Of a stretch of 64,000 nt of DNA, positions 22,247 through 60,642 are shown piece by piece. The stretch's first letter is position 1. Each line of letters starts with the position of its first letter. Where the stretch lies: positions 1-64,000 of IMG/VR virus record IMGVR_UViG_3300007169_000667; one strand, written 5' to 3'. Under the pieces are notes generated by a model. It did no database searches, was not told the DNA's origin, and saw only the letters and a program-made list of their open reading frames with translations. The position numbers and the translations under genes were made by a program. Source of the DNA: a virus (taxonomy: Duplodnaviria; Caudoviricetes).

Positions 22247-22261
22247 TTAACCCAATTAAAT

Positions 22262-22286
22262 AGGGGAGGTAACACTCCCCTTTTTT
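22262..22286 (+). terminator. Intrinsic terminator
   Basis: aggggag-gtaaca-ctcccct followed by a T run. Confidence 0.8.
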
Positions 22287-22291
22287 AAACT

Positions 22292-22952: not shown

Positions 22953-22953
22953 A

Positions 22954-25319: not shown

Positions 25320-25363
25320 TAAAATCTTGGCAGGATTTTTTGGTTGGTTTTCCTGTCATCTTG

Positions 25364-25400
25364 CTAGTAGGAGCCTGCGAAAGTGGGCTCTTCTAGTTTT
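25364..25400 (+). terminator. Intrinsic terminator with GAAA loop
   Basis: ctag-t-aggagcctgc-GAAA-gtgggctctt-ctag-tttt. Confidence 0.8.
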
Positions 25401-25411
25401 AAAATAAACTC

Positions 25412-25442
25412 TTGACTAAACTTTAAAATTAAATTATATTTG
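25412..25442 (+). promoter_or_regulatory. Bacteroidota-type promoter of the ring and muzzle operon
   Basis: TTGACT, 20-nt spacer, TATATTTG. Confidence 0.75.
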
Positions 25443-25476
25443 TAATAAGCCTTAAATTAACCCAAACTATATACTA

Positions 25477-26118: not shown

Positions 26119-26120
26119 TT

Positions 26121-26606: not shown

Positions 26607-26615
26607 ACAAAGACT

Positions 26616-40507: not shown

Positions 40508-43500
40508 ATGCCATCTGGTAATCTTGGATTTAATCCCTTCTATGGAACAAAAGACTTAACTGTAGCTGCAGATAGACAACTTAATTCTGAAAGAGGTTTA
40601 CAGTCTTTTGAAACTACGTTACGCAAAGGCGCTATTGCTGATCAAAACTATCAGAATAAATTAGTAGAAGAAAATAGAAACTTAAAATTAAATTCTTTAA
40701 AGAGTCTGTATATGCAGGCTTATGATAATCCAATTTTAGCAGAGAAGTCTGCTGCTTCAATGTTTAGTCGTATAGAAGGAGCAAGAGATAAAAATTCTAT
40801 TAATGCTATTCATCAAGAGCTAGAATCAATTAGAGAAAAAGCAGAAGATAATAAGTATTTGTTTGATGTTGCAGAGTTGGGAGACTCTTTACTTAACTGG
40901 TATGGCAGAGCTCGTGGTGTAGTTGAGGGTAAAGACAAATTACTTAAGTCTAAAGATATAGATTTAAATGAGTCTACTAAGTGGTTAACACCATCTGATC
41001 TCGTTACTAATATTAAATCCCATATAAATGAGATTGATTACAAATCTTTTGGTGTTAATCTTTTAAATAGTTACGGGAGTCCGGATGAGTTAAACAAAAA
41101 GCTAAAACAAAGTCTAGCTTCTCCTGTTGCTCAGAATGCTTTTGATGACTTATTAACGACTAAGTTACAAGATAATTTTATCACAAGAGGGAATGACTTC
41201 TATCGAGAAGGACCAGAAGCTAAACAGTTTCAACAACAAGCTTTAAATTCACTTAAAAATCCTGATGACCTTGCTAAGAAGTACTTTAAATATGATTTAG
41301 AGAACGAAACTATTGGTTCTTTACGTTCCGCAATTAGTTCAAAACTTACAGAACTTATAGTCTCTCCTAAATCAAAAGATGAGTCAGTAAACAAAGAGAA
41401 TGATCGTTTAATTACTTCTTATAGACAGTCTCTAGAGTTATTAGACAAACGCCAAAAAGAGAACGCTAAGATTTATGGAGTTAATAAATACGAACCTGAT
41501 TATGAAAGATTAGGAGGAAAAGGCAGAGGAGGAACTGCAAATTCTTTACTTTCAGGAGTAGTAGATTTATCAAATGCCTTTAGTAGTAGGAGTGACTTTG
41601 AGGGAACTATTTATAAGAAAGCATTGTATGCTCCTGAAGTAATTTCTTATACACCTGATGGTAAGCCAGTAATGTCTAATCAGTTTATGTATGAGAAAGA
41701 AGATGGTTCTACTGGTTTTAATTTTGGAGCAATACCTGAGGCAGGTGCTGCTATGATAAGTCAAATGTTACCTATTCTTTCTGTAGGATCTGTGGTAGGA
41801 GGAGTAGTAGGAGGAGCTGCAAAAAGTATTGATGCAGCTGCTAAGTTAGCAGAAGGATATTCTACCTTAAATAAAGTATCTGCATTTGGTAAAGAACTTC
41901 GAATGGCTGATAGACTCTCTACTTTTGCAACAGTTACTGCTGGTACCTTACCTACAATGATTGCAGAAGAAAAAAAGTGGGGAGGCAACTATTTTAAAAG
42001 AGCACTAGCTAAAGCATCAGTAGAAGGTTTGACTGAGGGTATTGGATTCCCTGACGTTGGGGCTTTAAAGTTTAAACCTTTTCAAGCAGATCTAGCTACT
42101 TCAGCAAAACGAGCAGCAGGAATTGAACTTAAGTTTACTGACAATGCTAGAAACTTCTTTAATTCTGCTGGACAATTTGGAGTTATTGGACTTAAACAAA
42201 ACGCAGTAGAAGCACTAGAAGAAGAGCTTTCATTACTAGGAAATGCTTTTTTAGAGACTACACTCATGCCTGAAGAGTTTGTAGGTAGAGATAAAACAGA
42301 AATAACTGGTGAGAGTATGCTTGATACTTTTGTTGAGTCTTTTGCAGCAGGCGCTATCTACTCAGGGTTTACAACTGGATTTCAAGGATATGCCGCAGGT
42401 AATAAGTCGCATGTTCAGAATCAAGCAGACTGGGAAGCAGCAAATAATCCAGAGCTATTTAAAGCTAAGTTAAAACAGCTTAATGAAAAAGGTAGTATTT
42501 CTGACCAACAATATGCTCAAGCTGTACTAGATGTTAATAGGAAGTCAGCTGTTTTAAATGGTTTGTTTGGTTTTGATAGCATTAGAGATGCTAAGACATT
42601 GTTAGAAGACAAAGATGAACAGTACAACTATTTTATTAATCATCTAAGAGCTGACGAACTAGTTGATATTAATTACGATGCCCTAACTGATCAAGAGAAG
42701 CAAATATTTGCAACTAGAAAACTTGCAGATAAAATAGACTCTAAAGGAAGAGCTAGAATGGATGAGATTAGAAAAGAACTTGTGGGTCTGTATAAAGAAG
42801 AGTTGACCGTAGAGAATGATAAAAAAATTAAAGATCTGTCAAAAGAATACTATGCTATCCGAAGAGCTAACATAAAAACAATAAATAAAAAAGATTTAAC
42901 AGCAGAAGAAGAAAAGTTTTTAAAAGAAAAAGGAATTATAGGCGAGAAAGACTTTGAATATACTCAAGCAGACATTGATGCTGAGTTATCTAAGGTTACT
43001 ACTGATATTTTAAAGACCCAGAAGAGAATAGAAAAGTATGCTAATTTATCTGAAGAAGAGAAAGCTAAAGTTATTTCTAATGCCTACGATGAAAAAATAG
43101 CTAGTCTTGATCAGATTACGGATCCACAGGAACTTATACAATCTAGAGTAAATGTACAAAGAGATCTAGATTATCTTAAACTTAAAGGAAACTATAAGGA
43201 TAAAGCACAGATTGCAAACAGAGAACGTTTGCTAGATGCTTATGGAGAAAGATTTGATCAACTTACAAATCAAAGGGACGAATCTGGAAGAAACTTTTTA
43301 GAACAGTCTATAGAGAATATAGACTATGATACCTTAGAAAATACTTTGGATCTTTATGGTATTACTAAGCTTCGTAATCAGATAGAAGATAATTCTGATT
43401 TTATTAATCAGGAGATGGCACTTACAGCAGACGAAAACTTAGCTGCAAGTCAAGTACGGATTCTAGAAAAACTTCTTACTGCTACTCCAGAAGAACGCCA

Positions 43501-46500
43501 ATCAGCATTAGCTGTTTTCTTAGACAATGTTGCACCTAAAAATGCAATGTATGCTTACAATGTAGAAGCTTTAAATAAACAATTTCCTGGTATAAAATTT
43601 ACTGTAGAAGAATTAGATATAGCCAGAGAAGCTTTAATTCAAAGAAGATCGGAAATGAAAGCACAGGAAATTGCTGGTCAACCTGTAACTGAAGAAGGAT
43701 TAACTGACGAAGAAAATGCAGATGTAGAAGAATTTTCTTCAATGGTTAATACTGCAAGTACTCCTTCTACTCCCTCTAATACTCCTGCTTCTTCTACCAC
43801 TTCTTCTCCTACCCAACCTATAGATGAGTCGGGTAAATCTCAAACTAAATTAACTTTTAAAGAGGGATATGCTAAGCAAGTAGGCGACTATAAGAAAAAG
43901 TATCCCACAGATTATATAAATAAATTTAAAGAATTTTTAGTTAATATAGTAGCAAGAAAGTTCGGTAGAGGAACAAGAGACTTTGACTACATTGTTGGTC
44001 TTGTAAATAGTCTCTTTAACAAGAGTATTACTATTTCTCAGTTTGAACAAAGTATAGCTAGTATGGCTGATATCATATCTAAAGATATTGCAGCTAGAAA
44101 AAGAAATAAAACAAACTCTGATACAGCAGAAAATAAACTTGCTTCATTGAACGCTGTATCATACTTTGCTAAAAGATTTGTACGAGAAGAGTTACCTACT
44201 ACTGCTGCTTCTGCACCTGTAGTAGCTGCTACACCCGTAGCAAATCCTTTGCCAGCAAATCTAAATACAGAAACTAAAAATAAAGCTTTAGATGCCCAAC
44301 TTGCTCGAAGAGAAGCAAGATTATTAGAATTAAATTCTCCCTTAAGGAGTGCAGCAATAGAGTTTGACAGTAAAGATGTACGAAGAACAGATCCTGCAGA
44401 AGTAAGAAATGCTAAAGCAATTGAGTCACTTGGTGGTCCAGGTGCTCAAATTAGAATACAGAGTAGAAAAGGAACAGCAATGGTATTCCTAGCTATGAAG
44501 TATCCCGATAAAACAGAAGAGCAAATAGATGAAGATTTTCGTAGAATAGAGTCAATTTTTGAGAATAACTCTATGACTATAGAACAATGGAATGCTTTAA
44601 CTAGGGAACAACAAGATGCTATATTAGCCCCAATGCACGAGCTTTTAGGAGAAGAATACTTTGATAGGTCTACCTTGGGATACTTTATAGTTAACAAAGG
44701 AGATGGATTCACAGTTAACTCTGCTGTTATGATTACTGCTCCTAATCAAGAAGAAGGTTCTTTATCTCTATTTGATGGGTATCCTCTACAATTAAACTTA
44801 ACCAAACTTGTCTCTAAGGGTAAAGATGTAGTTTTCCCAGAAGAACATAGTAAGACTTTACAGGATGTAAAAAGGTTAAGAACATTTTTAACTGAAAATC
44901 CTTATTCTTTTGTTGATACAGAGTTTAGTGTGTCTGAAGGAGTATTACCTAAATCCGCTAGTCAAAAGAAAGCAGCTGAGATAGAAAACGAAACCATTGC
45001 ACAATCTAATGCTAGTGACTTTGAGATTGCAGACTCAGAAGGTCAGGAAATTTTTGGTAAGACTTTTAAGTTTAACTTAGGTCGTATATACTTTAATAAC
45101 AATGGTAATCCCGTTATTCTAGGCAATACTAATATACAAGAGCAAGAGGCAGAGGCAATAGCAGAAATGATATTCTCTGAAACAATTCCTAGTGACTTTG
45201 TAGATCAGGCTGGATTAGAAAAGTATTTGTTTAGTCTTATTAACATTATAGATAAGAAGAATCGGGTACATTTTTTTCCTAATAATAATTATCCAAGTAA
45301 GTCCGAAGCAGTAGAGTACCCACTTACTGTTGTTCAGACTACCTATGTAAACGGTAAACCTGTTAATAAGATTTTGACCAAGGAAGAGTTCTTGGATTTC
45401 TTAAAGAAAAGTTTTTATAAAGCAGATCGTACTATATTACAAAATGGAGATCCTATGATACGAGTATCTTTGGTCGATGGTAAGATAGTAACAACTAAAC
45501 AATCTTATTCTGACTATCTAAAAGATACACATACTTTTCCTGTGACAGCTGGGGGAGAACTTATTACACCAATAAATAAAGTAGTTTATCCTGATCAAAA
45601 AGAATTTGAGAAAAAAGTACTCGAGGTTCTTCCTAAAACTCAGCCCACTCCTCCTCAAGTACAACCAAGTGTATCGAGTCCTAGTGTTTCTACTAGTACA
45701 AATCAACCTGAGGCAGTAGATCTTCACCTAGTACAACATGCAAAACTTAAAGAAGTAGTAGAAAAAAATCCAATACTTAACAGTTTATTTAAAGGTGCTT
45801 ATGACAATCTTACTCCAGAGTTATACGATCAACTGGTACAATTTATCTATGATAATCCAGGCAAAGTGACCTACAACTCTATAGAGTACACAGACTCTAG
45901 TAAAAGTGCTTACGGAATTGTTCCTTATACAACTGATAGTAATCCTATATTTATTTTTGTAGGCATACAATTACCAGGTAGAGAGAAGCCTTTTCCTCTA
46001 GTGATGTTAAGCAACGATGATTTAGAAGTAAGAGGTATAGATAAAAAGTCTATCCAATTAACTATGCCTAAACAAAATACTGCTCCAGTTATTCCTACTG
46101 CTCCTACTCAAACTGTGATTTCTAAGACTGATTTTGAAAAAAGAAAACAAAAGGATGATGCCAAACCTTCTAGAGAATCTGTAAAATATAAACTTCAAAA
46201 TAAAATAGCAGGTATAGATAATCCTAAACCAGGAAATGAAGTAACTAATTTGTCTGAAGCTATAAAAATAGCTGGTGCTAAACTAGCTACTCCTATAGAA
46301 ATTAATGAAGGAGAGATTACTCATGTAATATTCGACCAAGAAGAGTCTAATTTTAGATTTACTTATAAGAAACAAAAATTTGCCGCATTTTATATAACTA
46401 ATGTAAAAGGCAATGTCAGGTGGGAAATAGCAAAATTTAATGATAAGACAGGTACTTATCAGTCTATTAGCCTAGATGAATTAAAAAATATAAATGAAAA

Positions 46501-46903
46501 GTATGGCTCTCCAAAAGACTTGTTACTTAGTTTGGCTGCTAAACCTTTGATTCAAGATATTGAAAACTTTGAAAAAGTAGAATACTCTGAAAAAGATAAA
46601 TCCTCTGCTAATGGTATTATTCCTTTAGAAAATACTGTATCAGCAGAACAAGTAAGGTTGGGTAAAAAGTATGGTCAGACTTATACTTTGGAAGACTTTA
46701 TCAAAGATTACGATGCAGAACTAGCTGCCTCAGAACAATCTACACCTCCTAAGCAATCATTAGCAGACAGACTTAACAGTGTAAACGCAGGGGAGATGTT
46801 TGATCAAGATGATATAGACCAAGCAAAAAAAGCAAAAGAAGATTGTGCCGGATTAGATCGTGCTAAACAATTAAAAGAGATAAAAAAGAAACCTAAGTTG
46901 TAA
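40508..46903 (+). CDS. Giant ejection protein (2131 aa)
   Basis: Gly/Ala-rich membrane-prone segment (about residues 410-640), coiled coils, Pro/Thr linkers; directly upstream of the virion RNAP gene. Confidence 0.75.
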   Translation: MPSGNLGFNPFYGTKDLTVAADRQLNSERGLQSFETTLRKGAIADQNYQNKLVEENRNLKLNSLKSLYMQAYDNPILAEKSAASMFSRIEGARDKNSINAIHQELESIREKAEDNKYLFDVAELGDSLLNWYGRARGVVEGKDKLLKSKDIDLNESTKWLTPSDLVTNIKSHINEIDYKSFGVNLLNSYGSPDELNKKLKQSLASPVAQNAFDDLLTTKLQDNFITRGNDFYREGPEAKQFQQQALNSLKNPDDLAKKYFKYDLENETIGSLRSAISSKLTELIVSPKSKDESVNKENDRLITSYRQSLELLDKRQKENAKIYGVNKYEPDYERLGGKGRGGTANSLLSGVVDLSNAFSSRSDFEGTIYKKALYAPEVISYTPDGKPVMSNQFMYEKEDGSTGFNFGAIPEAGAAMISQMLPILSVGSVVGGVVGGAAKSIDAAAKLAEGYSTLNKVSAFGKELRMADRLSTFATVTAGTLPTMIAEEKKWGGNYFKRALAKASVEGLTEGIGFPDVGALKFKPFQADLATSAKRAAGIELKFTDNARNFFNSAGQFGVIGLKQNAVEALEEELSLLGNAFLETTLMPEEFVGRDKTEITGESMLDTFVESFAAGAIYSGFTTGFQGYAAGNKSHVQNQADWEAANNPELFKAKLKQLNEKGSISDQQYAQAVLDVNRKSAVLNGLFGFDSIRDAKTLLEDKDEQYNYFINHLRADELVDINYDALTDQEKQIFATRKLADKIDSKGRARMDEIRKELVGLYKEELTVENDKKIKDLSKEYYAIRRANIKTINKKDLTAEEEKFLKEKGIIGEKDFEYTQADIDAELSKVTTDILKTQKRIEKYANLSEEEKAKVISNAYDEKIASLDQITDPQELIQSRVNVQRDLDYLKLKGNYKDKAQIANRERLLDAYGERFDQLTNQRDESGRNFLEQSIENIDYDTLENTLDLYGITKLRNQIEDNSDFINQEMALTADENLAASQVRILEKLLTATPEERQSALAVFLDNVAPKNAMYAYNVEALNKQFPGIKFTVEELDIAREALIQRRSEMKAQEIAGQPVTEEGLTDEENADVEEFSSMVNTASTPSTPSNTPASSTTSSPTQPIDESGKSQTKLTFKEGYAKQVGDYKKKYPTDYINKFKEFLVNIVARKFGRGTRDFDYIVGLVNSLFNKSITISQFEQSIASMADIISKDIAARKRNKTNSDTAENKLASLNAVSYFAKRFVREELPTTAASAPVVAATPVANPLPANLNTETKNKALDAQLARREARLLELNSPLRSAAIEFDSKDVRRTDPAEVRNAKAIESLGGPGAQIRIQSRKGTAMVFLAMKYPDKTEEQIDEDFRRIESIFENNSMTIEQWNALTREQQDAILAPMHELLGEEYFDRSTLGYFIVNKGDGFTVNSAVMITAPNQEEGSLSLFDGYPLQLNLTKLVSKGKDVVFPEEHSKTLQDVKRLRTFLTENPYSFVDTEFSVSEGVLPKSASQKKAAEIENETIAQSNASDFEIADSEGQEIFGKTFKFNLGRIYFNNNGNPVILGNTNIQEQEAEAIAEMIFSETIPSDFVDQAGLEKYLFSLINIIDKKNRVHFFPNNNYPSKSEAVEYPLTVVQTTYVNGKPVNKILTKEEFLDFLKKSFYKADRTILQNGDPMIRVSLVDGKIVTTKQSYSDYLKDTHTFPVTAGGELITPINKVVYPDQKEFEKKVLEVLPKTQPTPPQVQPSVSSPSVSTSTNQPEAVDLHLVQHAKLKEVVEKNPILNSLFKGAYDNLTPELYDQLVQFIYDNPGKVTYNSIEYTDSSKSAYGIVPYTTDSNPIFIFVGIQLPGREKPFPLVMLSNDDLEVRGIDKKSIQLTMPKQNTAPVIPTAPTQTVISKTDFEKRKQKDDAKPSRESVKYKLQNKIAGIDNPKPGNEVTNLSEAIKIAGAKLATPIEINEGEITHVIFDQEESNFRFTYKKQKFAAFYITNVKGNVRWEIAKFNDKTGTYQSISLDELKNINEKYGSPKDLLLSLAAKPLIQDIENFEKVEYSEKDKSSANGIIPLENTVSAEQVRLGKKYGQTYTLEDFIKDYDAELAASEQSTPPKQSLADRLNSVNAGEMFDQDDIDQAKKAKEDCAGLDRAKQLKEIKKKPKL

Positions 46904-46929
46904 TTTTAGAGTATCTTAGTGTTACGTAT

Positions 46930-46937
46930 TATATTTG
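46930..46937 (+). promoter_or_regulatory. -7 promoter box before the RNAP gene
   Basis: TATATTTG 28 nt upstream of the ATG at 46966. Confidence 0.5.
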
Positions 46938-46965
46938 TTAAAACTAATTATAAAATAAAACTAGA

Positions 46966-49900
46966 ATGATTTGCCCTAATCTAAGTGACCCTAATATTCG
47001 TGCAGAGTTTAACTCTTTAAAGAATGTTGTAGGAGAAGACTTTGCTTACTTTCTTTGGAATAGAAACCAAGGTAATCCCTTGAGTAAAAAGACTATTATA
47101 AAAAATAAAAAAGAAGTTGTCGTAGATAATTCTATTTATAGTAACTTTTTATCTCAGTATCAGGGTAATGAAGCTAAAGCTATCTTTGCAGTAGCTGTTA
47201 CATTTAGTAACAAGTTCAAGAAGCAGTATCCAGGATTTGATGGATTCAACTCTTTTATACAGTCTAAAGTTGTTCATTCCTACATTACAAAAAACGGAGG
47301 AGACTTAGATGCTTTGGCTACTAAGATTATTGCTAAAGTAAATCAAGGATTTAAGGCAGAAAGATTTAGGCCAGAGGAAATTCAAGAAGTGAGCAGAGAG
47401 ATGCTACAAAACATCTCAGACGATGTAGATAAAACTATTGATAAGCCAACAGGTCGCCAACTATTAGATGCTTATATATGGTTTTCACAATCACCTTTAT
47501 CTAACTATGTAGGTTTTGCTAACTTAAGTAATATTGTTAATCAGAAAGCTTTTGCTCAATGGACAAAAGATGCAATTACCTTGTATCAAGGTTCAGACTC
47601 TTCTGACTTGTATCATGAATCTTTTCATGAATTTACACAAAGATTCTTAACTAAAGCAGAGAAAGCGGCTTTGTACGAATTAGTGCGTTCCAGACCTGGA
47701 AACATTAACTTAGGAGGGACAGAGATTCCACATTATTCTCTTACTAATAGACAAATAGAAGAGGTATTAGCAGAGTCTTTTCGAACCTACTCTTTAAACA
47801 GAAGCCAAGAACTTTCTCCTGAAGAACAAGCAATACTTGCAGCATCGGAAGAAGAAACTCTAGAACAACCTGTAAGAAATTTGTTTCAGCGTATAATGGA
47901 CTTCTTACGTAATCTATTTACTAAAAAGACCAGTATTACTCCTGAAGGACAGATTGTTGAAGAGAAAGCCCCTATAGATGAATTATTTGAGAAACTGTAT
48001 AGAGGCAATCTCTCGGAGTATAAACCTTCTGACTTAAATATAGAACATAATAAACTTAATAGAACTAAAGAGTTTACTTTAGAGGTAGTTACAAGTGCGG
48101 GAGAAAAAGTATCCATCGAGTACACTTCTGTTGAGGGTGCTGAGATTCTTAGTGCTATTGACTATTACTTTAATGCAGCAGTAGATAGAATGGGAATTAA
48201 TGCTGCATTCTTTAATAACTCTAAACTAAAAGCACAATTACTACCTAAGATCTATGATCAGGTAAAGACGTCTTTAGAGGCTGCTATTGAAAACTATGAG
48301 TCTCAATTAGAGACTGCAGATCCAGCTACTGCAGAAATTCTTGAAGAACGTATTAATTCTCTTAAGCCCTTAGTCTACAGTAAAGATGGACAAGATAAGT
48401 GGGCTGAAACAGTAGAGTATCATAAAGGATTTTCTAAGGGAAACATACTTAAAACAAAAGAAGGAGATGATACCAAAGACATAGATTCTGTATTAGATGA
48501 GATAGCTGAAGAAGACCGTAGTAGAAACGAATATGCTTCAAAGTCAGCTGAGATGATCAATCCTATTGATCTTGCTTCTCCTGAGATATTAGAACTTATT
48601 AAAACTCTTCCAGATATTAAAAGAAATGAATTAGGAGAAGAGATTCAACAGGTGGGAAGTATTTTAGGTCTACCCCAGGTAGGAGACTACCTAACCAATA
48701 AAAACTTAATTCTAAATACTGTAAGCGGTATTAAGAGTTACAGTGAGGCAATCCAAGCTTTAGTAGAAAAAGCAGACTTGTCCCCTCAACTTCTCTATTT
48801 TGTACAAAGAATGCCCAAAACTACTGGTACATTGAGTATAGAAGAGGAAGCATTAAAAGCTGGATTTCTACAGTTTGCTTCTATGCCTACAGTAGTTCCT
48901 TTAAATATTCGATCTACAGTAGAAGATACTCCTGGAAAGAAACCAGTTTTAAAGACTAGTGTGTTTGTTGAAAATACATTGTCTCTAAATAACTTGATGG
49001 AATACTTTGATCAAGACTTTATTGAAAATTCTAGTAGAAAATATAGGAACGTAGATGTAAATAGTATCAATGTTCCTACCTTTAGTGTTAAGTCTGTATT
49101 AGCTGATTATCTAGGACTAGCTCCTTTTGTTGCTGAAGATGCTTTTAGATTTTTTAAGGATGTATTTGGCGTAGATTTATATGGAGGAGTATCTCCATCA
49201 CTTATGTTTGATAGAAAAGGTAACTTCATTCCAAGTTCAAACCTAAGAATTACACCTATTGGACTTAAAAATATTCTTACAATTGCTAAACTATCAGTCA
49301 ATAAGATGGTATTAATGGATCAAATTGCTCGGTCTGGCAATCTAGATTTAATTGCATTAACTCCGCAGACAACTTCTCTTCCTCTAAGTACTTGGACTAC
49401 AGATATCTCTAGTAAACTTCAAAAAGCTATTAACGCTCTTAAAGATAATGACCCTGTTAAAGTGTTGTATAAACAAAGATTTGGTTCGATTACAACATTT
49501 AAAAATGAGAGAAGAAACTTCTTTAACACAGTAGAGTCTTTTTATAACTTATCTAATTCAGCTTCTTATCTTAATTTAGAGAAGAATTTAGAATGGTCTA
49601 TCAGAGAATGGAATCATATGATAGATACCGTAGAAGATTTAAATAAGGTAAAGAACTTATCCCAACTTAAAGGACACTTAAGTCCAGAGACAAATAACTT
49701 TATTAAGTACAGTGCTTGGGGTAAAAAGATGTTTGACTTCAACGGAGATCGTAAGAAAAACTTAGCAGGAGAAGACGTTTCTATAGAAGTATTAAACTTT
49801 TCTGGTATGCAGACTGGTATTTTTGATGGTAAGAAAACAACAAATCTCAGTGCAGACTCTAAGTTAGTTCAGGACTTTTTAGGATTTTTAAAAGATCGCA

Positions 49901-52900: not shown

Positions 52901-54780
52901 GTGTGGACGCTAAGATGAATGCATTACATAAACTTTTCCAACAAGTAGGATTAAGATTTAAGGCAGGTAATATAACAAACAACTATAGAATGAAGGCAAA
53001 CAGAACAACATCTGGAGAAATCATTCTAGGAGGATATATAGATGCTGACAATGACAATCTGATATCAGATGTAATCAATGAGTTTATTAATGGTCACGTA
53101 GACATTGAGAAAGAAGACTGGATTAACTATTTTAATGGTGATAATGTTCGGACTCCTCTTATTCTACAAATGGTTTTAAATGGTACTCCAGTTAAGGATG
53201 CTATTCTTTTAGTGAATCAACCTATTATTCAACATTTCTTAAGAGAGAATTTTGTTGGACATATAGGAAGAACACTTGGATCAAAGTCTAAATCTGAAAA
53301 ACAATACGTAATCGAGGCTTTAAAAGTACTTGGAGTATCGCCTATTATGGAGGAAATCCAAACTCCTAAAGGAAAAAAATCAGTTATTAACTTACAAGAT
53401 ACAGTAACAATGTTACTTGAAGACGATTACTTTAAGAGACATATAGAACGTTTTAATGAAAATGATTATCCGCCTTATGTAGAGAATAGTAGGAAAGCAT
53501 ACGATATTATTTTAGAAGAAGCTAAAACTGGAAACATAGAAGCTCAATCTAAGTTGGCTGCACAGGTTGCCTTCTTAACGCAGTATCTTGCTGTAAAGGA
53601 TCAACAAGATGTACTATATGATTTGACTTCTAATATAGATTTTAATACAAATAACTACAGAAATATTACAGATTTTTTCTCTGTAGCCTATGGTATTAAT
53701 TCAGCGTCTGATTATTTCAATGGAGAAGCAGTCGAAAAAATTCTTTCTAATAGCGTAGTATCTCCCTTTAACATTGTATCAGAAGCAGTAGAGATTTCTA
53801 GAAGTGTCTTCGATATTCTAGCTTTAGCTCCTGTTCAGGAACAAATACAAAAAATACTAGATGAAAATAAATATTGGAGCAGAGATAGGGCAACTAGAGA
53901 GGTTAATAAGATTCTTAATAATTTTATGCATATTCTTATTAGCAGATTTGGGGATGACTATAGTAGAGATTTGTATAATAGATATGGAAGAGATTCTGGA
54001 TTCTTAGAGAAGGATAAACCCAACAACTTAAAGTCTAAGTTTATTACTTTGTTTAAGGATAGTAGTAAGCCTGAGTTGATGCAGTTTGCAAACAAAAATT
54101 TATTTTTAGCTAACTTTAATACTATTGATGTAAAAGACTCAAAGATGTTTTATGTAGCTATGAAGACAAATGAGAAAGATCCTGATGCTATAGATGCTGT
54201 ACAAAAAGCATTCATGGATGGATTAAATCATCCTAATCCACAAGTGTCTCAGTTTTTTACAGATGTTGCTAGTGCTACTATAGTATCACAAGGATTTAAT
54301 ATTCGTTTTAGAAGTATACAACCATATCTTCCTATTAAAGGATATATTGATGTAGCAGCAGGTTTATCTGTTACTTTAAAAGGTTTAAAGTATTCTTATA
54401 ATAACTCTGACTCTAACGATGAAGAAGCTTTAACTATCTTTACAGAAGGCATTAAAGCAGCATATGCCCAATCTAAACAAAAGGGTCTATCAGAACTGGA
54501 TAGAGTGTTTCCTAAGTATAAATTTAAGGGAGATGTAGCAATCGTAGAAGAGGTTGATGAAGATGATGTTCTTCCATTAGAAGAAGGTAATACTTATGAT
54601 GATCCAGAGTTTGACGATGAAGAAGCTTACAGAAGTCAAGGAATTTTAAATAGTTCTAGAGGTAATAGACCTGTTGACTTAGGAGAATCTACAGGTGTAA
54701 ATGTTGCACGTAAGTCAGGAAAAAGTACGCCACTAAGTTCTACAGATGCAGAAGTGACTAAGTGTAACATAGAAGATTAG
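46966..54780 (+). CDS. Virion-packaged multisubunit-type RNA polymerase (crAss-like, phi14:2 gp66 homologue) with N-terminal zincin-like domain
   Basis: Catalytic GSDFDIDKL (DFDID codons 52243-52257) preceded by RIPVQG; beta-like SDAQAY, KLGYYG...K and S-x-NK motifs; HESFH...EE-x-LAE zincin motif. Confidence 0.9.
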   Translation: MICPNLSDPNIRAEFNSLKNVVGEDFAYFLWNRNQGNPLSKKTIIKNKKEVVVDNSIYSNFLSQYQGNEAKAIFAVAVTFSNKFKKQYPGFDGFNSFIQSKVVHSYITKNGGDLDALATKIIAKVNQGFKAERFRPEEIQEVSREMLQNISDDVDKTIDKPTGRQLLDAYIWFSQSPLSNYVGFANLSNIVNQKAFAQWTKDAITLYQGSDSSDLYHESFHEFTQRFLTKAEKAALYELVRSRPGNINLGGTEIPHYSLTNRQIEEVLAESFRTYSLNRSQELSPEEQAILAASEEETLEQPVRNLFQRIMDFLRNLFTKKTSITPEGQIVEEKAPIDELFEKLYRGNLSEYKPSDLNIEHNKLNRTKEFTLEVVTSAGEKVSIEYTSVEGAEILSAIDYYFNAAVDRMGINAAFFNNSKLKAQLLPKIYDQVKTSLEAAIENYESQLETADPATAEILEERINSLKPLVYSKDGQDKWAETVEYHKGFSKGNILKTKEGDDTKDIDSVLDEIAEEDRSRNEYASKSAEMINPIDLASPEILELIKTLPDIKRNELGEEIQQVGSILGLPQVGDYLTNKNLILNTVSGIKSYSEAIQALVEKADLSPQLLYFVQRMPKTTGTLSIEEEALKAGFLQFASMPTVVPLNIRSTVEDTPGKKPVLKTSVFVENTLSLNNLMEYFDQDFIENSSRKYRNVDVNSINVPTFSVKSVLADYLGLAPFVAEDAFRFFKDVFGVDLYGGVSPSLMFDRKGNFIPSSNLRITPIGLKNILTIAKLSVNKMVLMDQIARSGNLDLIALTPQTTSLPLSTWTTDISSKLQKAINALKDNDPVKVLYKQRFGSITTFKNERRNFFNTVESFYNLSNSASYLNLEKNLEWSIREWNHMIDTVEDLNKVKNLSQLKGHLSPETNNFIKYSAWGKKMFDFNGDRKKNLAGEDVSIEVLNFSGMQTGIFDGKKTTNLSADSKLVQDFLGFLKDRTFENIRAGAKNSAFATRINGNLADRTYHKFEDFIVMNKTVLASSVQSQFTDYLKFEVSRMYDDRAKSTQKEVRGSEFIILQDILSPQLQDELKNLVAVAESKESLIEAVSQLYSGRRDTRYGEFKDSLTQYFQDQLRVFKAALTESIADGKKANFVKKFNQTFTEEGDARSESQIDAIILAYITNYYTHQIEYMHMLVGDPSNFNAKGGNWREVFKRLGGSISPGKQPHLDDQTLLSWNSEPKYARLLEQQVKGRGKSREYDENFKYIQFKDIKSFTRSQEDVLRKQIEDGFVDWKLSLLPKNASKAKKAEVILAAKEEIKTNLDDMFAQDKESDAQAYANLDFIRFYLNSIDEWSSELEEAYNHEVKVLEAIKAYRANKGTKQSVLDLIEQSNKGILTSLKLGYYGSPLENTKYVTLGKYSVFNLLPSAVFNTDLESFMFDMFEKGVDFATFDSGNKMSTPVESIPFYKEDDVLSINNIPTKSILTYPISGLRRQQYIAPKFKNEATLSTQMVKLLFGDFYINGEINPAFAQIQDKMDSLQQEFINMVQNVVNAEKAKIYTQIEAEVDENGVIKTFSIPAFKRWLFKEFDKKDIPNSVYVYIDSLDENEFIRSIDGSSRRDLVENVISSALSKRVLKPKMFGEAYIQLASSGFNQLGTRFKKPSKEDVSKYGTSGLRDYRVENGKTQPADIKIAFNPKKHLPLLNLEFNGQRIATLARLNEALLDDNWVELHSEKITMAGVRIPVQGFNSMEYFRVREFLPTSAGPVIVVPPSIVTKSGSDFDIDKLFMYEPMLDSEGNIMDDSIVDSADFTKNMLNNIRERVVNLQNKKEIKELLNNTGAYFIKGLYEKDIKNLKGVLYDLSTRKASYDDPLVEGAHLRIKLLIARIEHLLKENPSLADTLAKLKEINKDLDTLQGYTPNNIKNVSSNRMIKVISGVLSEPALFSRFTKPNSNKILPEIAAKYLALRNKGGKISSTDMFSPLTSVALFKENTLGKKSLGVDAKMNALHKLFQQVGLRFKAGNITNNYRMKANRTTSGEIILGGYIDADNDNLISDVINEFINGHVDIEKEDWINYFNGDNVRTPLILQMVLNGTPVKDAILLVNQPIIQHFLRENFVGHIGRTLGSKSKSEKQYVIEALKVLGVSPIMEEIQTPKGKKSVINLQDTVTMLLEDDYFKRHIERFNENDYPPYVENSRKAYDIILEEAKTGNIEAQSKLAAQVAFLTQYLAVKDQQDVLYDLTSNIDFNTNNYRNITDFFSVAYGINSASDYFNGEAVEKILSNSVVSPFNIVSEAVEISRSVFDILALAPVQEQIQKILDENKYWSRDRATREVNKILNNFMHILISRFGDDYSRDLYNRYGRDSGFLEKDKPNNLKSKFITLFKDSSKPELMQFANKNLFLANFNTIDVKDSKMFYVAMKTNEKDPDAIDAVQKAFMDGLNHPNPQVSQFFTDVASATIVSQGFNIRFRSIQPYLPIKGYIDVAAGLSVTLKGLKYSYNNSDSNDEEALTIFTEGIKAAYAQSKQKGLSELDRVFPKYKFKGDVAIVEEVDEDDVLPLEEGNTYDDPEFDDEEAYRSQGILNSSRGNRPVDLGESTGVNVARKSGKSTPLSSTDAEVTKCNIED

Positions 54781-54794
54781 ATTATATTTAAAGT

Positions 54795-54823
54795 TTGATA
54801 TTTTTAATTAAAGATTATATTTG
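54795..54823 (+). promoter_or_regulatory. Bacteroidota-type promoter before the third giant gene
   Basis: TTTG about 18-19 nt upstream of TATATTTG. Confidence 0.6.
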
Positions 54824-54837
54824 TAACATACGTAAAA

Positions 54838-57800
54838 ATGAGCAAAGGCTGTATTATACATGTAAATAATCCTATATCAGGAGAAAGACATGCTTCCACT
54901 TTAGGATATCTATTAACGCAATTAGATTTAGATAGCGACTATATTGCACAAACTATAGAAGCTATTTATGATAACGTTGGAAGTACTCGTTCTTGGGGAC
55001 CTCTTAAATCGTCTATGACTGCTGCTCATAATCCAGAAGCAGATATAGAACAGTTTTTAGGTTTAGCGGGAATTCAACTTCCTCCTAGACAACTTGCTTA
55101 TGTAAAGGATGTACAAAAATTTTACGAGGAGAGAGACTTAGATATAGAAAAAGAATATAATCTAACTGATGTACAACAACTTGTACTAGACAATCAGCCT
55201 TATTCTACTTTCTCATTACAAATAGAACCTGTACAGAGCGATTTACCTGGTGCACAAAGAACTTACAAATTGACTCCTGCATCAGGAAAAAATGAGTTTA
55301 AGTTAATGATGACGGAGGCTTTAGAGTACGAGTTGATTAGAAGTAACTCTGCTTTAGAGTCAGCTAACGTACAACATCTTCAGCCATACTTAGACTTTAC
55401 TAATCCTGATATCTTTGATACTGCTACAAAAATTATTAATGATCCTAGTACTCCACAATATCAGAGAGAGATACTTAAAAAACTAATTAGAGTACTTCAT
55501 ATAGATCCAAACATCAGTATGGACTTTAGAGTAGAGCATACAGGAGTTATGAGGGATCGCAATGGTGACTATCTTATTAGGCCTGCAACATATGATGCCA
55601 GCAATCGTAAACTAAGTTTTAGTCCTATAGCATTAGGTGCTCTAGATATAGATTCTTTTAAGAAGTTGTTTATTCATGAGTTAGTCCACTCTGTTACTGT
55701 GCATGCTATGATGTCTCCTAGTAATGCTACTGATAAAAAATTGGTTGAAGGTATAAGAGAGGCCTATCTTTATTATAAGACTAAATATAAAGGACAAGCT
55801 CCTGTAGGAGATTATTACGGTTTAGCAGATGAGTTTGAGTTTGTAAGTGAATTCTTAAGTAATCCTGCCTTTAGAGATTCTATAGAAAAAAATGATGTAG
55901 AATATGCTAGAAATATTTTTGAAAAGATATGGGACTTTATACTAAGTAAGCTAGGTTTAACTAAGCCAGATAAAAAGATTGCCCCAACTCAAGAAGCACT
56001 TGATGAATTGTTAGATAATTATTTTGCAGAAGTAGTATTTAATAACAACTTAAATACTAAAAGTAATCCATTAGATAAACAAAAATTTAACTATGAGATG
56101 ACAACTATGCAAATGGAAGAAGCTAAGGAGTACTTATTAAAAAATTCTGAATTCCAAAAAAATCTTACTAGGTTTCTAGACTCAGACATTATTGACTGGA
56201 AAAAGATTTTTATGGAGGCGAATAGTATAAAAATTAATTTGCCTTTGCTATATAAATCAGAAGAGTCTCTGCAAAATATATCTATTGGAGAAGCTAAAGA
56301 GGCTTTTAGATCCCTAGTTACATACTTTCATGATACAGCTAAGTATCTTAGATCTTTACAATTATCTATGGATTCTATGTCTGCAAGTGGTATCTATACT
56401 CAAGAGGAGATGTTTAGACAAGCATACCATGCTCGTGAGTTAGGTGAACACTTTAAGCAAGTAATGCGTGAGTATACAGACATTATGGGAGACACTGGTA
56501 CAGGCACTGTATTAAATACTCAAATAAGAAACATAGAAGCTTTAGCTAACTCACTTACACAAGACTACTTTAATAAAGCTACTAAAGCTATTGCAGAGAA
56601 GTTAGCTAGAGAGATTGCTCCTCAAACAGAATCTATGCGAGCAACTATTGCTCAGAATATAGAACAGTTTCAAAAATCTTATGATTCAGCAGTTGCTTCA
56701 GGTAATAATACATTAGCTCAGAATCTTAAGAATAAAATAGCAGAGGAAACCAAGAAGTATAATGAATTGGCTACAGAAGAAAATATTGCCAGAGCATTTA
56801 CTGGCAAATTAAAAGATATTAATTTATTCAGTCTTTATGCAGAATCTGCAGCACTAACAGGTAATATTATTACAGGTACTGTGGGTTCTATGTTGAGTAA
56901 AATGTATGACGAAGCTAACGCAGAATCTATTGTACTAGAAAGAAAAATGCGGGGATTAGGAGATAGGCTAGAAAAAATTACAAAGTCTAAAGGGGGTAGG
57001 AATCTTACAGGTTTAGATTTTCAAAATACTTTTGGACCATACATCCGTAAAGTAACAGTTAAAGAAATTAAGAAGGGAGAGATAGTAGAAAGAGAGACTT
57101 TAGTTTTTAATACAGAGATGGATGAGATCGCTTATCAAAACGATCGAATTACTCTTATTCATGCTATCCAGCAACTTAAAAACCAAAAAAATCAAACAGA
57201 TATTATAAAAGAAGAGATAAAGAAAAAAGAAAGAGAGTTAGTTAATCTACAAGAAGAGTTTGAAGAGAAGCCTTTTATAGATGAATACTATCGTATTCAA
57301 TCCTTATTAAGTGATGAAGCAAGGGAGGCTAGAGAAGAAATCATAGAGGAGATGCGTAAGATTCAAGCATCTTCTTTAGACGAAGAGAATAATGAGGATG
57401 AATTAGATAAGTTAGAAGACTTAAAGTCTCAGTTAGAACGTTTAGAGGCAGATACCGACATCAACGGTATAGTTAAAGATGAAAAGGGTTTACGTATAGC
57501 TGCAAGTATAAGAGAGTGGAAAAAAGAGAAAAATGCTGCAGAGTTATACAAATATGAGCTAACAGAAACTAATAAAGCTTTATTTAATGTACAACTAACA
57601 AAAAAGAAAGCTTCTTTGGATAGAGTTAAATTAGAGTATGAAGATGCTGTAGCAACAAAACAACCTGAAGAGGTTATAAATTCTAAAAAAGCTATACTAA
57701 ATGCAGTCCAAAAAGACTATGATGTTTGGAGAGCCAATAATGCTGTAAGAAAGATTAGTCCAGAGTTTTATGAAGAACGTAGAGAGATCTTAGATTCTAT

Positions 57801-60642
57801 TTCTGCTATTCAAGAGAAAGTAGATGTTCCTGGCATGAGAACTGTTTCAGAGATCTGGGATGAGATTTTTAGCCTATTAAAAGGATTTAAGAATAATGAT
57901 AATCTTTATGATGGATCAAGAATTCCTAATGAGACTGTTACTGTAGAGGAGAATGGTGTTGTTAGAGAAGTAAATATTCCTATACGTATAGCAGAGTTAG
58001 AGAAAGAGTTAGAAGAAGTTAAAGAAACTATTAAAGAGGAGTCTCCTGAACTATCCAGAGAAGATCGTGTAGCTCTTCGTAATCTATATAAAGAGCTTTC
58101 TGCAATCCAAGAAAAAGTCTATACACCTGCATATATTGAAGTATACAATACTAAGTTAGCTGAACAAAGAGCCAAACTTTCTGCTCAAAATTCTGCTAAG
58201 TATGCAGGAGATCAAAATGGTAGTTTGCTAACTTCGGATGCTGTAGAGGCATTAAAAAATACTACATGGTATAAGATGAACCATAAAAAGGTTTATAACT
58301 ATTCTGAAGCTGCAGGTACCTTTATAGAAGAAGATGAACCACTAACCTATTGGATGACGACTGAACCTACAGATAAGTCCTACATTAGTTTTAATGAACC
58401 CTCGTTTAGATGGAAAACTATTACTCTTAATCCTGTTTTTAGAAAAGAAACCGTTACTCAGAACAAGAAATCTAAACGAGTATCATTGGATAATACAAAG
58501 ACTAAGTATATAAATCCAGAGTACGCTAGATTAAGTACTGAAGAAAAACAGTTACTTTCTGAAATACTTGAGGTGTATAATGAGATGCAAAAAGGAGTTC
58601 CTAGAAACCTTAAGAAAGGTTTAGAACTTCCTTCTGTAATGAAAGAAGGCTTTGAGGCTTTAGGAAATAAGAAATTTGGTACTATTGGCTCTCAGATAAA
58701 AGGCGTAGCTAGTAACATATGGGATAATATGACCTTTAAGAATGATGAAGATATGTCTAGAGACGAAGAAGGCAGTATGGTGACAAAGGTTAATAGAAGA
58801 CTTTTCTTACGTTACAATACTCCTATTGGGGCAGACAAGATGAGTGTAAACTTTATTAATAGTTTAACTATGTACGGTACTGATCTGATTAGGTTTAGAA
58901 AAGCTTACGCTAATGCTCCATATTTATACGGTATACAAGATGTTCTTAGTGAAAAAATTCCTGGAAGTCGTATCCAAAAGATGGTAAATAACTTATTTGA
59001 ACGTAAGTTACAAGGTAAGTCTAGAAAGCCTATGATTAATAATAAAGCGGGTAGGGTATTTGAGTGGGCTTTAGATAAGGGATTGGGTATTGGTGCAGAG
59101 TTAGCACTTAGTTTACGTTTACCTTCAAGTATTAAAAACTTTGGAGCTGGTACAATAAACATCTTTGAACAGTTAAAGATTTACGGTGTTAGTCGAAAAG
59201 ATGTTACTGTAGCAATGGGAAAGAATGCTAAGCATATTGGCGATTTATTTAAATCTTATGTAGAAGATGGTATAGATTCTCCTTATATTCAGAAGATGCG
59301 TTACTTCAATATTATGGTTGAAGATCATTTAACTGAATCAGGTAAAAGAGTATATGTTAGTGATTTAGCTAAAGGAGTTAGAAAATACAATCCTCTTTAT
59401 ATGCTTTCTTTTACTAGGACATTTGGTGAATTTGAAATGCGTAGTGCGGTAGCAGAATCTTTATCTAAGCAGTTTATGGTAGAGATGACCGATGGAACAT
59501 TCAAGCCTATAATGGATGCTTACATTGTAGAAGAGGGTGTTATTAAACCTGATCCAAATATTAAAGACATAGAAGGATTTAGTGGAGTAGAATCTGCATT
59601 TAGGCAAAAAGTAAACGCAGTAAATGCTCTTATTCATGGAGCGTATGGTGCAATGGATAAAGGAGAATATAGTAGATATACTATAGGAAGATTAGTTGGC
59701 TACATGAAGGGATGGTTTACCTATCAGTTTATTAGAAGATTTGGAAATAGAAGAATGAACTATGGAGCAGGTATGGAACAACAAGGGTACTTTAGAACCT
59801 TGGTACAGGCTCTTAAGTTAATCATGCAGAATAGATTTTCTTTTGCAGCTGTAGACAGTTTAATGAGTCCTAGAGAAAAAGCAGAAGCTATGGCAGCAGT
59901 TTATGACATGCTTGTGTTAAGTGTAAGTACTGCTATTGCAATTGCTTTAAATGCTTTAGTATACTCTGATGATGACGATGAGGAAAATATCTGGGGAGCT
60001 TATTTTTTACTTTACAATCTTTTACAAATCGAAGATGAATTAAACACGTTGAATCCTGTCTTTGGAACAGGATCTATTGTCTATTCTCGTATGATGAATA
60101 ATGTAGACGGTAAGAATATAGGACAATTTTATTTAGAGAAAAATTTTATTCTTCCTTTGCAGGGAGCTTTTGAGTCTATTAAATTAGCTTATCAATTTGT
60201 TAACCCATTAGATGATGTAGATATGTTTGATGAGTATATTGAACGTAGTAGAACAGGTAATATTTTAAATCCTAAAAGATATAAGCCTGATCCTGTACTT
60301 CAGGGACAGATGGAGTTTTTTGCTAGATTAGAAAAAATGTTTGGACTTGCAGTAAGTACAAATTACTTTACTGGACCTGAGTATATCTATAGGAAATATG
60401 AAGCTAAAAACCCAAGATGGTTTATATCTACATTAGATTCTGAGATAAAGGGAACGAAAGGAGACATATCTTCTATTAATAAACAAATTAAAGCTATGAC
60501 TCGTCAGTTAGACTATTTAGATGATGAAGAAACTAAACAATCTTTACAATCACAAATAGATGATCTTCAAAAAGAAAAAGTCCAGCTTAAAGAACAACAG
60601 AGAGAGTTGTCTGACTATGAAGAAGGATTAGATAGAAGTTAA
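54838..60642 (+). CDS. Giant ejection protein (1934 aa) with zincin-like domain and C-terminal membrane segments
   Basis: FIHELVH...DEFEFVSE zincin motif, long coiled coils, hydrophobic MLVLSVSTAIAIALNALVY; G-x-Y...R...G...K-x-W...RRF pattern of crAss-like cargo C-termini. Confidence 0.78.
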   Translation: MSKGCIIHVNNPISGERHASTLGYLLTQLDLDSDYIAQTIEAIYDNVGSTRSWGPLKSSMTAAHNPEADIEQFLGLAGIQLPPRQLAYVKDVQKFYEERDLDIEKEYNLTDVQQLVLDNQPYSTFSLQIEPVQSDLPGAQRTYKLTPASGKNEFKLMMTEALEYELIRSNSALESANVQHLQPYLDFTNPDIFDTATKIINDPSTPQYQREILKKLIRVLHIDPNISMDFRVEHTGVMRDRNGDYLIRPATYDASNRKLSFSPIALGALDIDSFKKLFIHELVHSVTVHAMMSPSNATDKKLVEGIREAYLYYKTKYKGQAPVGDYYGLADEFEFVSEFLSNPAFRDSIEKNDVEYARNIFEKIWDFILSKLGLTKPDKKIAPTQEALDELLDNYFAEVVFNNNLNTKSNPLDKQKFNYEMTTMQMEEAKEYLLKNSEFQKNLTRFLDSDIIDWKKIFMEANSIKINLPLLYKSEESLQNISIGEAKEAFRSLVTYFHDTAKYLRSLQLSMDSMSASGIYTQEEMFRQAYHARELGEHFKQVMREYTDIMGDTGTGTVLNTQIRNIEALANSLTQDYFNKATKAIAEKLAREIAPQTESMRATIAQNIEQFQKSYDSAVASGNNTLAQNLKNKIAEETKKYNELATEENIARAFTGKLKDINLFSLYAESAALTGNIITGTVGSMLSKMYDEANAESIVLERKMRGLGDRLEKITKSKGGRNLTGLDFQNTFGPYIRKVTVKEIKKGEIVERETLVFNTEMDEIAYQNDRITLIHAIQQLKNQKNQTDIIKEEIKKKERELVNLQEEFEEKPFIDEYYRIQSLLSDEAREAREEIIEEMRKIQASSLDEENNEDELDKLEDLKSQLERLEADTDINGIVKDEKGLRIAASIREWKKEKNAAELYKYELTETNKALFNVQLTKKKASLDRVKLEYEDAVATKQPEEVINSKKAILNAVQKDYDVWRANNAVRKISPEFYEERREILDSISAIQEKVDVPGMRTVSEIWDEIFSLLKGFKNNDNLYDGSRIPNETVTVEENGVVREVNIPIRIAELEKELEEVKETIKEESPELSREDRVALRNLYKELSAIQEKVYTPAYIEVYNTKLAEQRAKLSAQNSAKYAGDQNGSLLTSDAVEALKNTTWYKMNHKKVYNYSEAAGTFIEEDEPLTYWMTTEPTDKSYISFNEPSFRWKTITLNPVFRKETVTQNKKSKRVSLDNTKTKYINPEYARLSTEEKQLLSEILEVYNEMQKGVPRNLKKGLELPSVMKEGFEALGNKKFGTIGSQIKGVASNIWDNMTFKNDEDMSRDEEGSMVTKVNRRLFLRYNTPIGADKMSVNFINSLTMYGTDLIRFRKAYANAPYLYGIQDVLSEKIPGSRIQKMVNNLFERKLQGKSRKPMINNKAGRVFEWALDKGLGIGAELALSLRLPSSIKNFGAGTINIFEQLKIYGVSRKDVTVAMGKNAKHIGDLFKSYVEDGIDSPYIQKMRYFNIMVEDHLTESGKRVYVSDLAKGVRKYNPLYMLSFTRTFGEFEMRSAVAESLSKQFMVEMTDGTFKPIMDAYIVEEGVIKPDPNIKDIEGFSGVESAFRQKVNAVNALIHGAYGAMDKGEYSRYTIGRLVGYMKGWFTYQFIRRFGNRRMNYGAGMEQQGYFRTLVQALKLIMQNRFSFAAVDSLMSPREKAEAMAAVYDMLVLSVSTAIAIALNALVYSDDDDEENIWGAYFLLYNLLQIEDELNTLNPVFGTGSIVYSRMMNNVDGKNIGQFYLEKNFILPLQGAFESIKLAYQFVNPLDDVDMFDEYIERSRTGNILNPKRYKPDPVLQGQMEFFARLEKMFGLAVSTNYFTGPEYIYRKYEAKNPRWFISTLDSEIKGTKGDISSINKQIKAMTRQLDYLDDEETKQSLQSQIDDLQKEKVQLKEQQRELSDYEEGLDRS

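Follow-up and report, generated by a model that had tools for sequence, protein, structure and literature searches.

Why should three adjacent giant proteins, almost devoid of cysteine (Cys), carry their only four Cys residues close to the ends at which one protein faces the next? This question is raised by a 64,000-nucleotide stretch of phage DNA, referred to here as the window, which corresponds to positions 1–64,000 of IMG/VR record IMGVR_UViG_3300007169_000667 (Duplodnaviria, Caudoviricetes). An open reading frame (ORF) listing of the window places five ORFs between 36487 and 60642, all on the (+) strand, and the last three of these encode the proteins in question, P1, P2 and P3, of which P2 is identified below as a virion RNA polymerase (RNAP). 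We consider it probable, from the distribution of Cys across related phages and by analogy with a published structure, that P1, RNAP and P3 are joined head to tail by disulfides into a pseudo-polyprotein, and refer to such proteins collectively as a chain. The features on which this depends are as follows.

40508–46903, (+) strand: P1, 2131 amino acids (aa), the first chain member, with C2113 as its sole Cys and none at the N-terminus (ORF and Cys count).
46823–46846, (+) strand: the conserved C-terminal motif of P1, AKKAKEDC, whose last residue is Cys2113; the 18 residues beyond it form a variable basic tail (alignment A2).
46844–46846, (+) strand: the P1 Cys2113 codon, TGT, 18 residues from the end (Cys count).
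46966–54780, (+) strand: P2, the RNAP, 2604 aa, the middle chain member, with C3 and C2600 as its only Cys (homology and Cys count).
46972–46974, (+) strand: the RNAP Cys3 codon, TGC, within the invariant N-terminal motif MICPN (Cys count and alignment).
47614–47628, (+) strand: the RNAP HESFH motif (HExxH, zincin-type) in the N-terminal module (homology to the C-terminal region of crAss001 gp47).
54763–54765, (+) strand: the RNAP Cys2600 codon, TGT, four residues from the C-end (Cys count).
54838–60642, (+) strand: P3, 1934 aa, the last chain member, zincin-type, with C5 as its sole Cys and none at the C-terminus (homology and Cys count).
54850–54852, (+) strand: the P3 Cys5 codon, TGT (Cys count).

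A computed count confirms four Cys in the 6,669 residues of P1, RNAP and P3 (C2113; C3 and C2600; C5), where about 71 would be expected at the background frequency of 1.07% found in the other ORFs of the window (115 Cys in 10,720 residues). The probability that four randomly placed residues would be distributed one to each of the four facing termini, to within 19 residues, is approximately 1.6e-9, and the deficit and the placement together therefore exceed what chance would provide. The same four Cys had been reported by a first-pass annotation made by eye, and translation and counting match it to the codon; its statements that P1 has no Cys at the N-terminus and P3 none at the C-terminus, and that the 559- and 773-aa cargo proteins encoded immediately upstream are Cys-free, are likewise borne out.

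All four Cys, and none besides, are kept by five IMG/VR relatives whose RNAP N-termini are 99% to 38% identical to that of the window, and the pattern recurs in relatives as remote as 20–30% identity. A profile of the RNAP core (alignment A1) added 80 loci with 25–62% identity, and our survey set comprised the window plus 85 IMG/VR loci with 229 chain proteins and a total of 504,259 aa. The set contains 340 Cys, with 148 at positions 3–6 (never at position 2) and 149 lying 0–26 residues from the C-end (143 of them 0–8 residues); the 49 internal Cys correspond to a frequency of 0.0097%. With chain members assigned by size and adjacency, Cys is found on both sides of 143/143 junctions, the upstream residue 0–8 (rarely 17–26) residues from the C-end and the downstream one at position 3–6, and complete chains have no Cys at the first N-end or the last C-end. 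The exceptions raised by a stricter count are all accounted for by the window clade (Cys 17–26 residues from the end), one mis-called start, homing-endonuclease insertions, P1–RNAP fusions and chain ends. It should be noted that L012, L013 and L085 are truncated loci, and that L057, which was considered as a fusion, was rejected because it is a 5'-truncated RNAP. Within the window clade, alignment A2 shows that the P1 C-terminal Cys is invariant in seven members, with a tail of 8–26 aa beyond it. Across approximately 95 relatives overall, the Cys pair is kept where the genes are separate and is gone where they are fused, and on these comparisons the terminal-Cys pattern is a rule across the order Crassvirales.

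The same rule can be read in cultured crassviruses. In phi14:2, the sole Cys of gp078 (1797 aa) is the last residue, gp077 (2180 aa) has C3 and C2179, and gp076 (1421 aa) has C3 (these GenBank names correspond to gp67, gp66 and gp65 of Drobysheva et al., respectively). In crAss001, the sole Cys of gp47 (2341 aa) lies two residues from the end, gp50 has C5 and C2404 as well as one internal Cys, and gp49 has C5, and the rule holds here even though gp50–gp49 are on the opposite strand to gp47. Chain order and terminal-Cys pattern in both phages (gp67–gp66–gp65 and gp47–gp50–gp49) are the same as in the window, which differs in that its P1 Cys lies 18 residues from the end, compared with 0–2 in phi14:2 and crAss001. 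Further examples are provided by the p-crAssphage relative LMMB, where a 1957-aa zincin fusion with Cys one residue from the end is followed by a 4070-aa RNAP fusion with C3; by FpV4, where the sole Cys of gp32 (4287 aa) is one residue from the end and gp33 has C3; and by the Suoliviridae phage cr131_1, where Cys is four residues from the end in gp48 and at position 5 in gp47 (this phage was translated under table 11 only and has recoded stops, and only the gp48/gp47 junction was read). Ambiguous bases make the junction of IAS virus unreadable. In crAss002, gp32 has Cys one residue from the end and gp33 reads MSC from an internal methionine, Met33. We note that the annotated start of crAss002 gp33 (L091, 12938–25675) gives Cys35, and that a start at Met33 gives MSC as in LMMB; judging from this agreement, the annotation probably begins 32 codons too early.

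Five observations tie the Cys to the gene break and not to any one domain. First, chains in the survey set have as many pairs as breaks (1, 2 or 3), and total chain length stays at 5,390–6,674 aa. Second, small intercalated chain members hold exactly two Cys, one per end; these are proteins of 328 aa in L009, 583 aa in L024, 506 aa in L029, 396 aa in L036, 304 aa in L070, approximately 170 aa in L016–L019, 203 aa in L020 and 289 aa in L075. Third, when genomes were labelled as split or fused for P1 and RNAP from gene architecture alone, without reference to Cys, the RNAP N-terminal Cys was found in 54/54 split genomes and 0/10 P1–RNAP fusions. The junction pair is missing from all ten fusions (the P1 C-end and RNAP N-end Cys are both gone), and the RNAP C-end and P3 N-end Cys are retained. 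In the sole alignment to span this junction, the P1 Cys of L023 lies opposite a tyrosine in the fused L061 protein, which continues on.

The fourth observation is that the Cys follow the break when it moves. Residues 195–320 of the window RNAP, which form the HExxH module, are homologous to residues ~2135–2267 of crAss001 gp47 (pairwise E 1e-7), and the module lies before the P1/RNAP break in crAss001 and after it in the window, which indicates that the break has moved. In both phages, the Cys lie to either side of the break as it stands, and none is found at the position where the other phage is broken. Other comparisons made for breaks at non-homologous positions gave no alignment (the L060 P3 against the C-terminal region of the L050 RNAP, the 583-aa protein of L024 against the L025 P3, and the 170-aa protein of L016 against L014). 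The fifth observation is that other families, with fusions of other kinds, keep to the rule as well, as described above for LMMB, crAss002, FpV4 and cr131_1. A nucleotide-level signal, such as coupling or RNA structure, was also considered as the basis of the pattern and was rejected because the rule holds in crAss001, where gp50–gp49 are inverted relative to gp47, and because it spans inserted endonuclease genes and intervals as long as 1.3 kb.

Fused versions of the crAss RNAP block, or 'polyproteins', had been noted earlier by Drobysheva et al. (preprint 10.1101/2020.03.07.982082). Such forms (FpV4 gp32 with 4287 aa, and the p-crAssphage-type fusions) contain the same modules with a similar total length of 5.4–6.7 thousand aa, but their continuity is provided by a peptide bond with no junction Cys, and any release of their parts would be by proteolysis and not reduction. 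Functionally, separate proteins with Cys pairs appear to be equivalent to the fused polyprotein. The first-pass annotation had proposed that the C-end of P1 pairs with the N-end of RNAP and the C-end of RNAP with the N-end of P3, so replacing a polyprotein fusion, and this pairing is well supported by the 143/143 junctions and by the absence of the pair from fusions. Its reading also depended on terminal Cys being reciprocal among orthologues, on internal Cys being nearly absent, and on loss of the Cys in fused genomes, and the survey agrees with it on each of these points.

A direct precedent for this type of link is found in cyanopodophage A4, where cryo-electron microscopy revealed a disulfide between gp27 Cys1715 and gp26 Cys5 in the pre-ejectosome of the virion, a bond which, as part of an ordered ring, stabilises a C-terminal helix seated in a cleft of the neighbouring protein (PMC12002296). 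We checked the A-4L genome and found that C1715 is the sole Cys of gp27 (1717 aa) and C5 that of gp26 (1114 aa). The arrangement is the same as in the crAss chain, as the upstream giant has its only Cys two residues from the C-end and the product of the next gene has its only Cys at position 5. The window carries the same signature, with RNAP C2600 four residues from the end facing P3 C5, and P1 C2113 18 residues from the end facing RNAP C3. No match was found at E 0.01 when A4 gp26 and gp27 were compared by blastp with the chain proteins of the window, crAss001, phi14:2 and IMG/VR, and the likeness is therefore functional and does not reflect membership of one family. The two systems differ in that A4 has one junction and no RNA polymerase, while crAss phages have a chain of 1–4 junctions that includes the RNAP, and the A4 authors regarded the bond as a ring stabiliser and drew neither a comparative rule nor an equivalence with fusion.

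Disulfides between virion proteins are also known from crassviruses themselves, as crAss001 virions have inter-subunit disulfides in the gp57 dimer and in tail hub and ring proteins (PMC10172136). These show that crassvirus virions carry protein–protein disulfides, although they occur in fixed shell and tail parts which stay in the particle and not in ejected cargo. Small virion proteins encoded at 20410–27452 of the window are likewise unusually Cys-rich (2.0–6.0%), and are reminiscent of the disulfide-stabilised tail barrel and hub of crAss001. The ejection proteins of T7 and N4 provide a different comparison, as these are also large, packaged and ejected via a narrow channel, and are Cys-free like the interior of the crAss chain (0 Cys in the 4,294 aa of N4 gp50 virion RNAP, gp51 and gp52, and 0 in the 2,065 aa of T7 gp15 and gp16). 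Unlike the crAss proteins, they have no facing terminal Cys and so no sign of a covalent chain, and the N4 polymerase consists of one protein of 3,500 aa. We infer that ejected proteins generally avoid Cys; the only one in T7 gp14 is at position 2.

One Cys per terminus, always facing another, is the signature that would be expected of an intermolecular disulfide. The first-pass annotation had proposed this chemistry, and it stands by analogy with the gp27–gp26 bond of A4 and the inter-subunit disulfides of crAss001 virions, the chemistry of the crassvirus cargo itself being deduced from these cases. The links in the window would join P1 Cys2113 to RNAP Cys3 and RNAP Cys2600 to P3 Cys5, most likely as disulfides, to give a thread of approximately 6,700 residues inside the virion (P1-S-S-RNAP-S-S-P3). 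The bonds would form once the termini adjoin in the particle after assembly, outside the reducing cytoplasm. The crAss001 channel is about 25 Å wide at its narrow end, and proteins pass through it partly unfolded (PMC10172136). Cys located 0–8 residues from the C-end and at position 3–6 leave a side branch of near-zero length, which fits such a passage, and a junction of this kind could pass a narrow portal and tail channel unfolded. The remainder of the chain, being Cys-free, would form no loops or wrong cross-links, with Cys added only where continuity is needed, and thioredoxin-type reduction in the host cytoplasm may part the three proteins.

We are more cautious about what the link would do during infection. 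The cargo of ~6,000–7,000 residues might exit as one unfolded thread in a fixed order and then be reduced by the host so as to free, and perhaps activate, the RNAP; the same idea extends to a redox-gated substitute for polyprotein processing across the Crassvirales which would have arisen separately in A4. The first-pass annotation had also suggested ordered threading and redox release, and we offer both only as a tentative extension of the disulfide-linked chain.

The main functional rival, which we regard as unlikely, is that the disulfides are static clasps which keep a pre-ejectosome or cargo body intact inside the capsid and fix a 1:1:1 stoichiometry, as proposed for A4, with no threading as a leash and no redox release. 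The role of the A4 bond in stabilising a docked helix in an ordered ring agrees with this, as does the position of the P1 Cys, 18 residues from the end and inside a conserved motif. Structure prediction bears on both readings. In agreement with the disulfide-linked thread, an AlphaFold2 model of RNAP residues 1–330, with a mean predicted local distance difference test score (pLDDT) of 59.8, places Cys3 in coil ahead of the helix that opens the fold at residue 9, and consists of a helical domain (9–126), a disordered stretch (126–213) and then the HExxH region; termini were also disordered in the phi14:2 gp66 crystal. Co-folding of the last 100 aa of P1 with RNAP 1–330 gave a score of 0.59, compared with 0.00 for the best of three controls, the runs agreeing in at least 32% of contacts with a partner pLDDT of at least 48. 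In the benchmark this mark is reached by 58/80 solved complexes and 2/110 mismatched pairs, although scores of 0.60 or less include only seven of those 80 complexes and both of the passing mismatches. The co-fold consequently lends weak support to the meeting of these termini that the first-pass annotation had envisaged, and equally to a clasp in which the P1 tail docks on the RNAP N-terminal domain. A static clasp does not explain, however, why a plain peptide bond can substitute for it in fusions, why the Cys follow a break that has moved, or why they lie so close to the chain ends (0–8 and 3–6 residues).

A second possibility is that the facing Cys jointly bind a metal ion, such as zinc or copper, to form a reversible non-covalent bridge. 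Such a bridge could be assembled in a reducing cytoplasm, and HExxH modules are found near two of the termini. However, there is one Cys per terminus and never a CxxC as in a zinc hook or ribbon, no His, Asp or Cys neighbour is conserved across clades as a second ligand, two thiolates do not make a normal structural zinc site, and the same signature in A4 is modelled as a disulfide; we therefore regard a metal bridge as highly improbable. Still less credence is given to other chemistry specific to the break (such as thioester ligation, split-intein-like splicing, protease recognition or lipidation) or to Cys that are inherited with no linking role. Cleavage of the polyprotein forms has been presumed, and the chain includes a zincin-type protease, but the Cys, at 3–6 residues downstream and 0–8 upstream in 143 cases, leave no room for intein halves, for which no Pfam family was found either. 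Cys is never at position 2, where removal of the initiating methionine would expose it, the fused forms lack the junction Cys, which is thus not a signal for cleavage, there is no signal peptide or lipobox, and inheritance alone cannot explain new pairs at new breaks. Least credible of all is a different pairing, by closure of RNAP C3 with C2600 accompanied by a P1–P3 bond or by homodimers through the same Cys, since although two-Cys members (RNAP and the small intercalated proteins) could cyclise in principle and packaging of each protein in several copies has been proposed (PMC10172136), fusion removes exactly the P1 C-end and RNAP N-end Cys and would orphan their partners, the first N-end and last C-end never carry Cys, and A4 shows head-to-tail pairing directly.

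Several points nevertheless weigh against a disulfide-linked chain. Particles are assembled in a reducing cytoplasm and the gut hosts are anaerobic, which puts the formation and timing of the bonds in question. The P1 Cys of the window clade lies 17–26 residues from the end, compared with the usual 0–8, and would leave a longer side branch at the junction. Independent P1–RNAP fusion or fission events are few, as the RNAP-core tree requires at least four architecture changes, with two on well-supported branches, and a sign test with 2–4 contrasts cannot reach significance. Some C1-like cargo proteins (C1 being the 773-aa protein of the window) have one terminal Cys for which the next gene offers no evident head-to-tail partner (LMMB, L089 682–3267, one residue from the C-end; crAss002 gp30, seven from the C-end; FpV4, L095, gp30, at position 5), and these possibly have another partner or form homodimers. 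We found no published non-reducing gels or disulfide-linked peptides for crassvirus cargo. Finally, recombinant phi14:2 gp66 is active alone in dithiothreitol, which indicates that the link is unnecessary for catalysis.

Our full-text literature searches found no description of Cys or disulfides in crAss cargo, and cargo Cys are not mentioned by Drobysheva et al. or by Bayfield et al. (PMC10172136). The first-pass annotation had considered the idea undescribed, which remains true of the chain rule in crAss phages, for which we found no paper, but not of the bond itself, as a 2025 study of A4 described one such head-to-tail disulfide joining two ejection proteins (PMC12002296). What is new is the order-wide chain and its equivalence to fusion; the bond type was known, with A4 the one published precedent found. 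The rule bears on how crassviruses pack, order and eject an RNAP cargo of ~700 kDa, for which it predicts a covalent thread, the polymerase being its central member, and so a concrete mechanism. For crAss001, the masses of gp47 (262.5 kDa), gp50 (276.9 kDa) and gp49 (154.5 kDa) add up to about 694 kDa. It also suggests that, as genes split and fuse during evolution, a disulfide can stand in for a peptide bond. As an aid to annotation, it can be used to find chain members, to check start codons (as for crAss002 gp33) and to separate chain genes from homing-endonuclease insertions.

Such insertions can be seen at several loci, where small Cys-containing ORFs lie between chain genes (L036 14956–15549, L054 12361–13050, L029 10024–10641 and L088 18426–19091). 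Two of these four begin with KGSCIY, which is GIY-YIG-like, and are probably homing endonucleases. The inserted GIY-YIG-like ORFs do not have the terminal-Cys pattern and the chain pair spans them.

The identity of the window proteins is supported by comparisons with cultured phages and by the following additional features.

36487–38808, (+) strand: C1, a 773-aa cargo protein in the position of crAss001 gp45, with zero Cys and outside the Cys chain (gene order matches crAss001; the PHROG match is weak only).
38814–40493, (+) strand: C2, a 559-aa cargo protein in the position of crAss001 gp46, with zero Cys (gene order as in crAss001).
52243–52257, (+) strand: the RNAP catalytic motif DFDID, residues 1760–1764 (alignment A1).
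55675–55689, (+) strand: the P3 zincin motif HELVH, residues 280–284 (blastp and homology).

Searches of Pfam and PHROGs returned no family for P1, RNAP or P3, and megablast of 46000–56000 against phage records gave no match. By tblastn, the RNAP matched 82 crAss-like records at 20–30% identity, and by blastp it shares 22% identity over 1013 aa with phi14:2 GenBank gp077 (E 2.9e-16) and matches crAss001 gp50 (E 2.9e-9). The DFDID motif is invariant in alignment A1, in which phi14:2 and crAss001 are included, and from this homology P2 is identified as a two-barrel Crassvirales virion RNA polymerase of the phi14:2 gp66 type. P3 is similarly identified by its blastp matches to phi14:2 GenBank gp076 (gp65; E 6.6e-16) and crAss001 gp49 (E 1.5e-13) as a homologue of these zincin-type cargo proteins. 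P1 is the positional equivalent only of phi14:2 gp078 and crAss001 gp47, as BLAST found no similarity between it and either protein.

The cargo block is preceded on its 5' side by a portal, several virion structural proteins and a 1699-aa virion protein, and followed on its 3' side by a tail protein, and the region is a standard Crassvirales structural and cargo module. In crAss001, gp45, gp46, gp47, gp49 and gp50 have been detected in virions and placed in the capsid cargo zone (PMC10172136), and the annotation of the phi14:2 record states that the chain equivalents were found in virions. From its position in the structural module and the virion proteomics of these relatives, we infer that the window RNAP would be packaged in the virion and ejected into the host.

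The ends that meet at the junctions have some further characteristics. The RNAP N-terminal module of the window clade (46966–47955, residues 1–330) combines an invariant MICPN start with a YHExFHEF (HExxH) motif and counts as a second zincin-like module beside that of P3. The start CPN[LKI][SN] recurs on differing chain members according to lineage, being found on the RNAP here, on the last giant elsewhere and on the extra 328-aa protein in L009 (14026–15012); it is also present in the downstream proteins of L025, L026, L032, L037, L061, L067, L081 and L087 and in gp47 of cr131_1 (L006). This start resembles an N-terminal module that is mobile, or else an acceptor end that is preferred. On the P1 side of the P1–RNAP junction, approximately 195 residues of P1 (46130–46711, residues ~1875–2068) are extra when compared with the relative L003 and lie just before the conserved Cys tail. 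The L003 P1 is 97% identical to the window P1 over residues 1–1874, with the tail only 78% identical, and the stretch of P1 adjoining the junction is a hypervariable region; tandem repeats were sought in P1 as the cause of its length difference and none were found.

Finally, the late genes of cr131_1, L040, L078 and L084 have in-frame stops under table 11. Those of L040, L078 and L084 have open frames under table 15, which points to stop-codon reassignment, and the chain proteins of cr131_1 contain more internal Cys.

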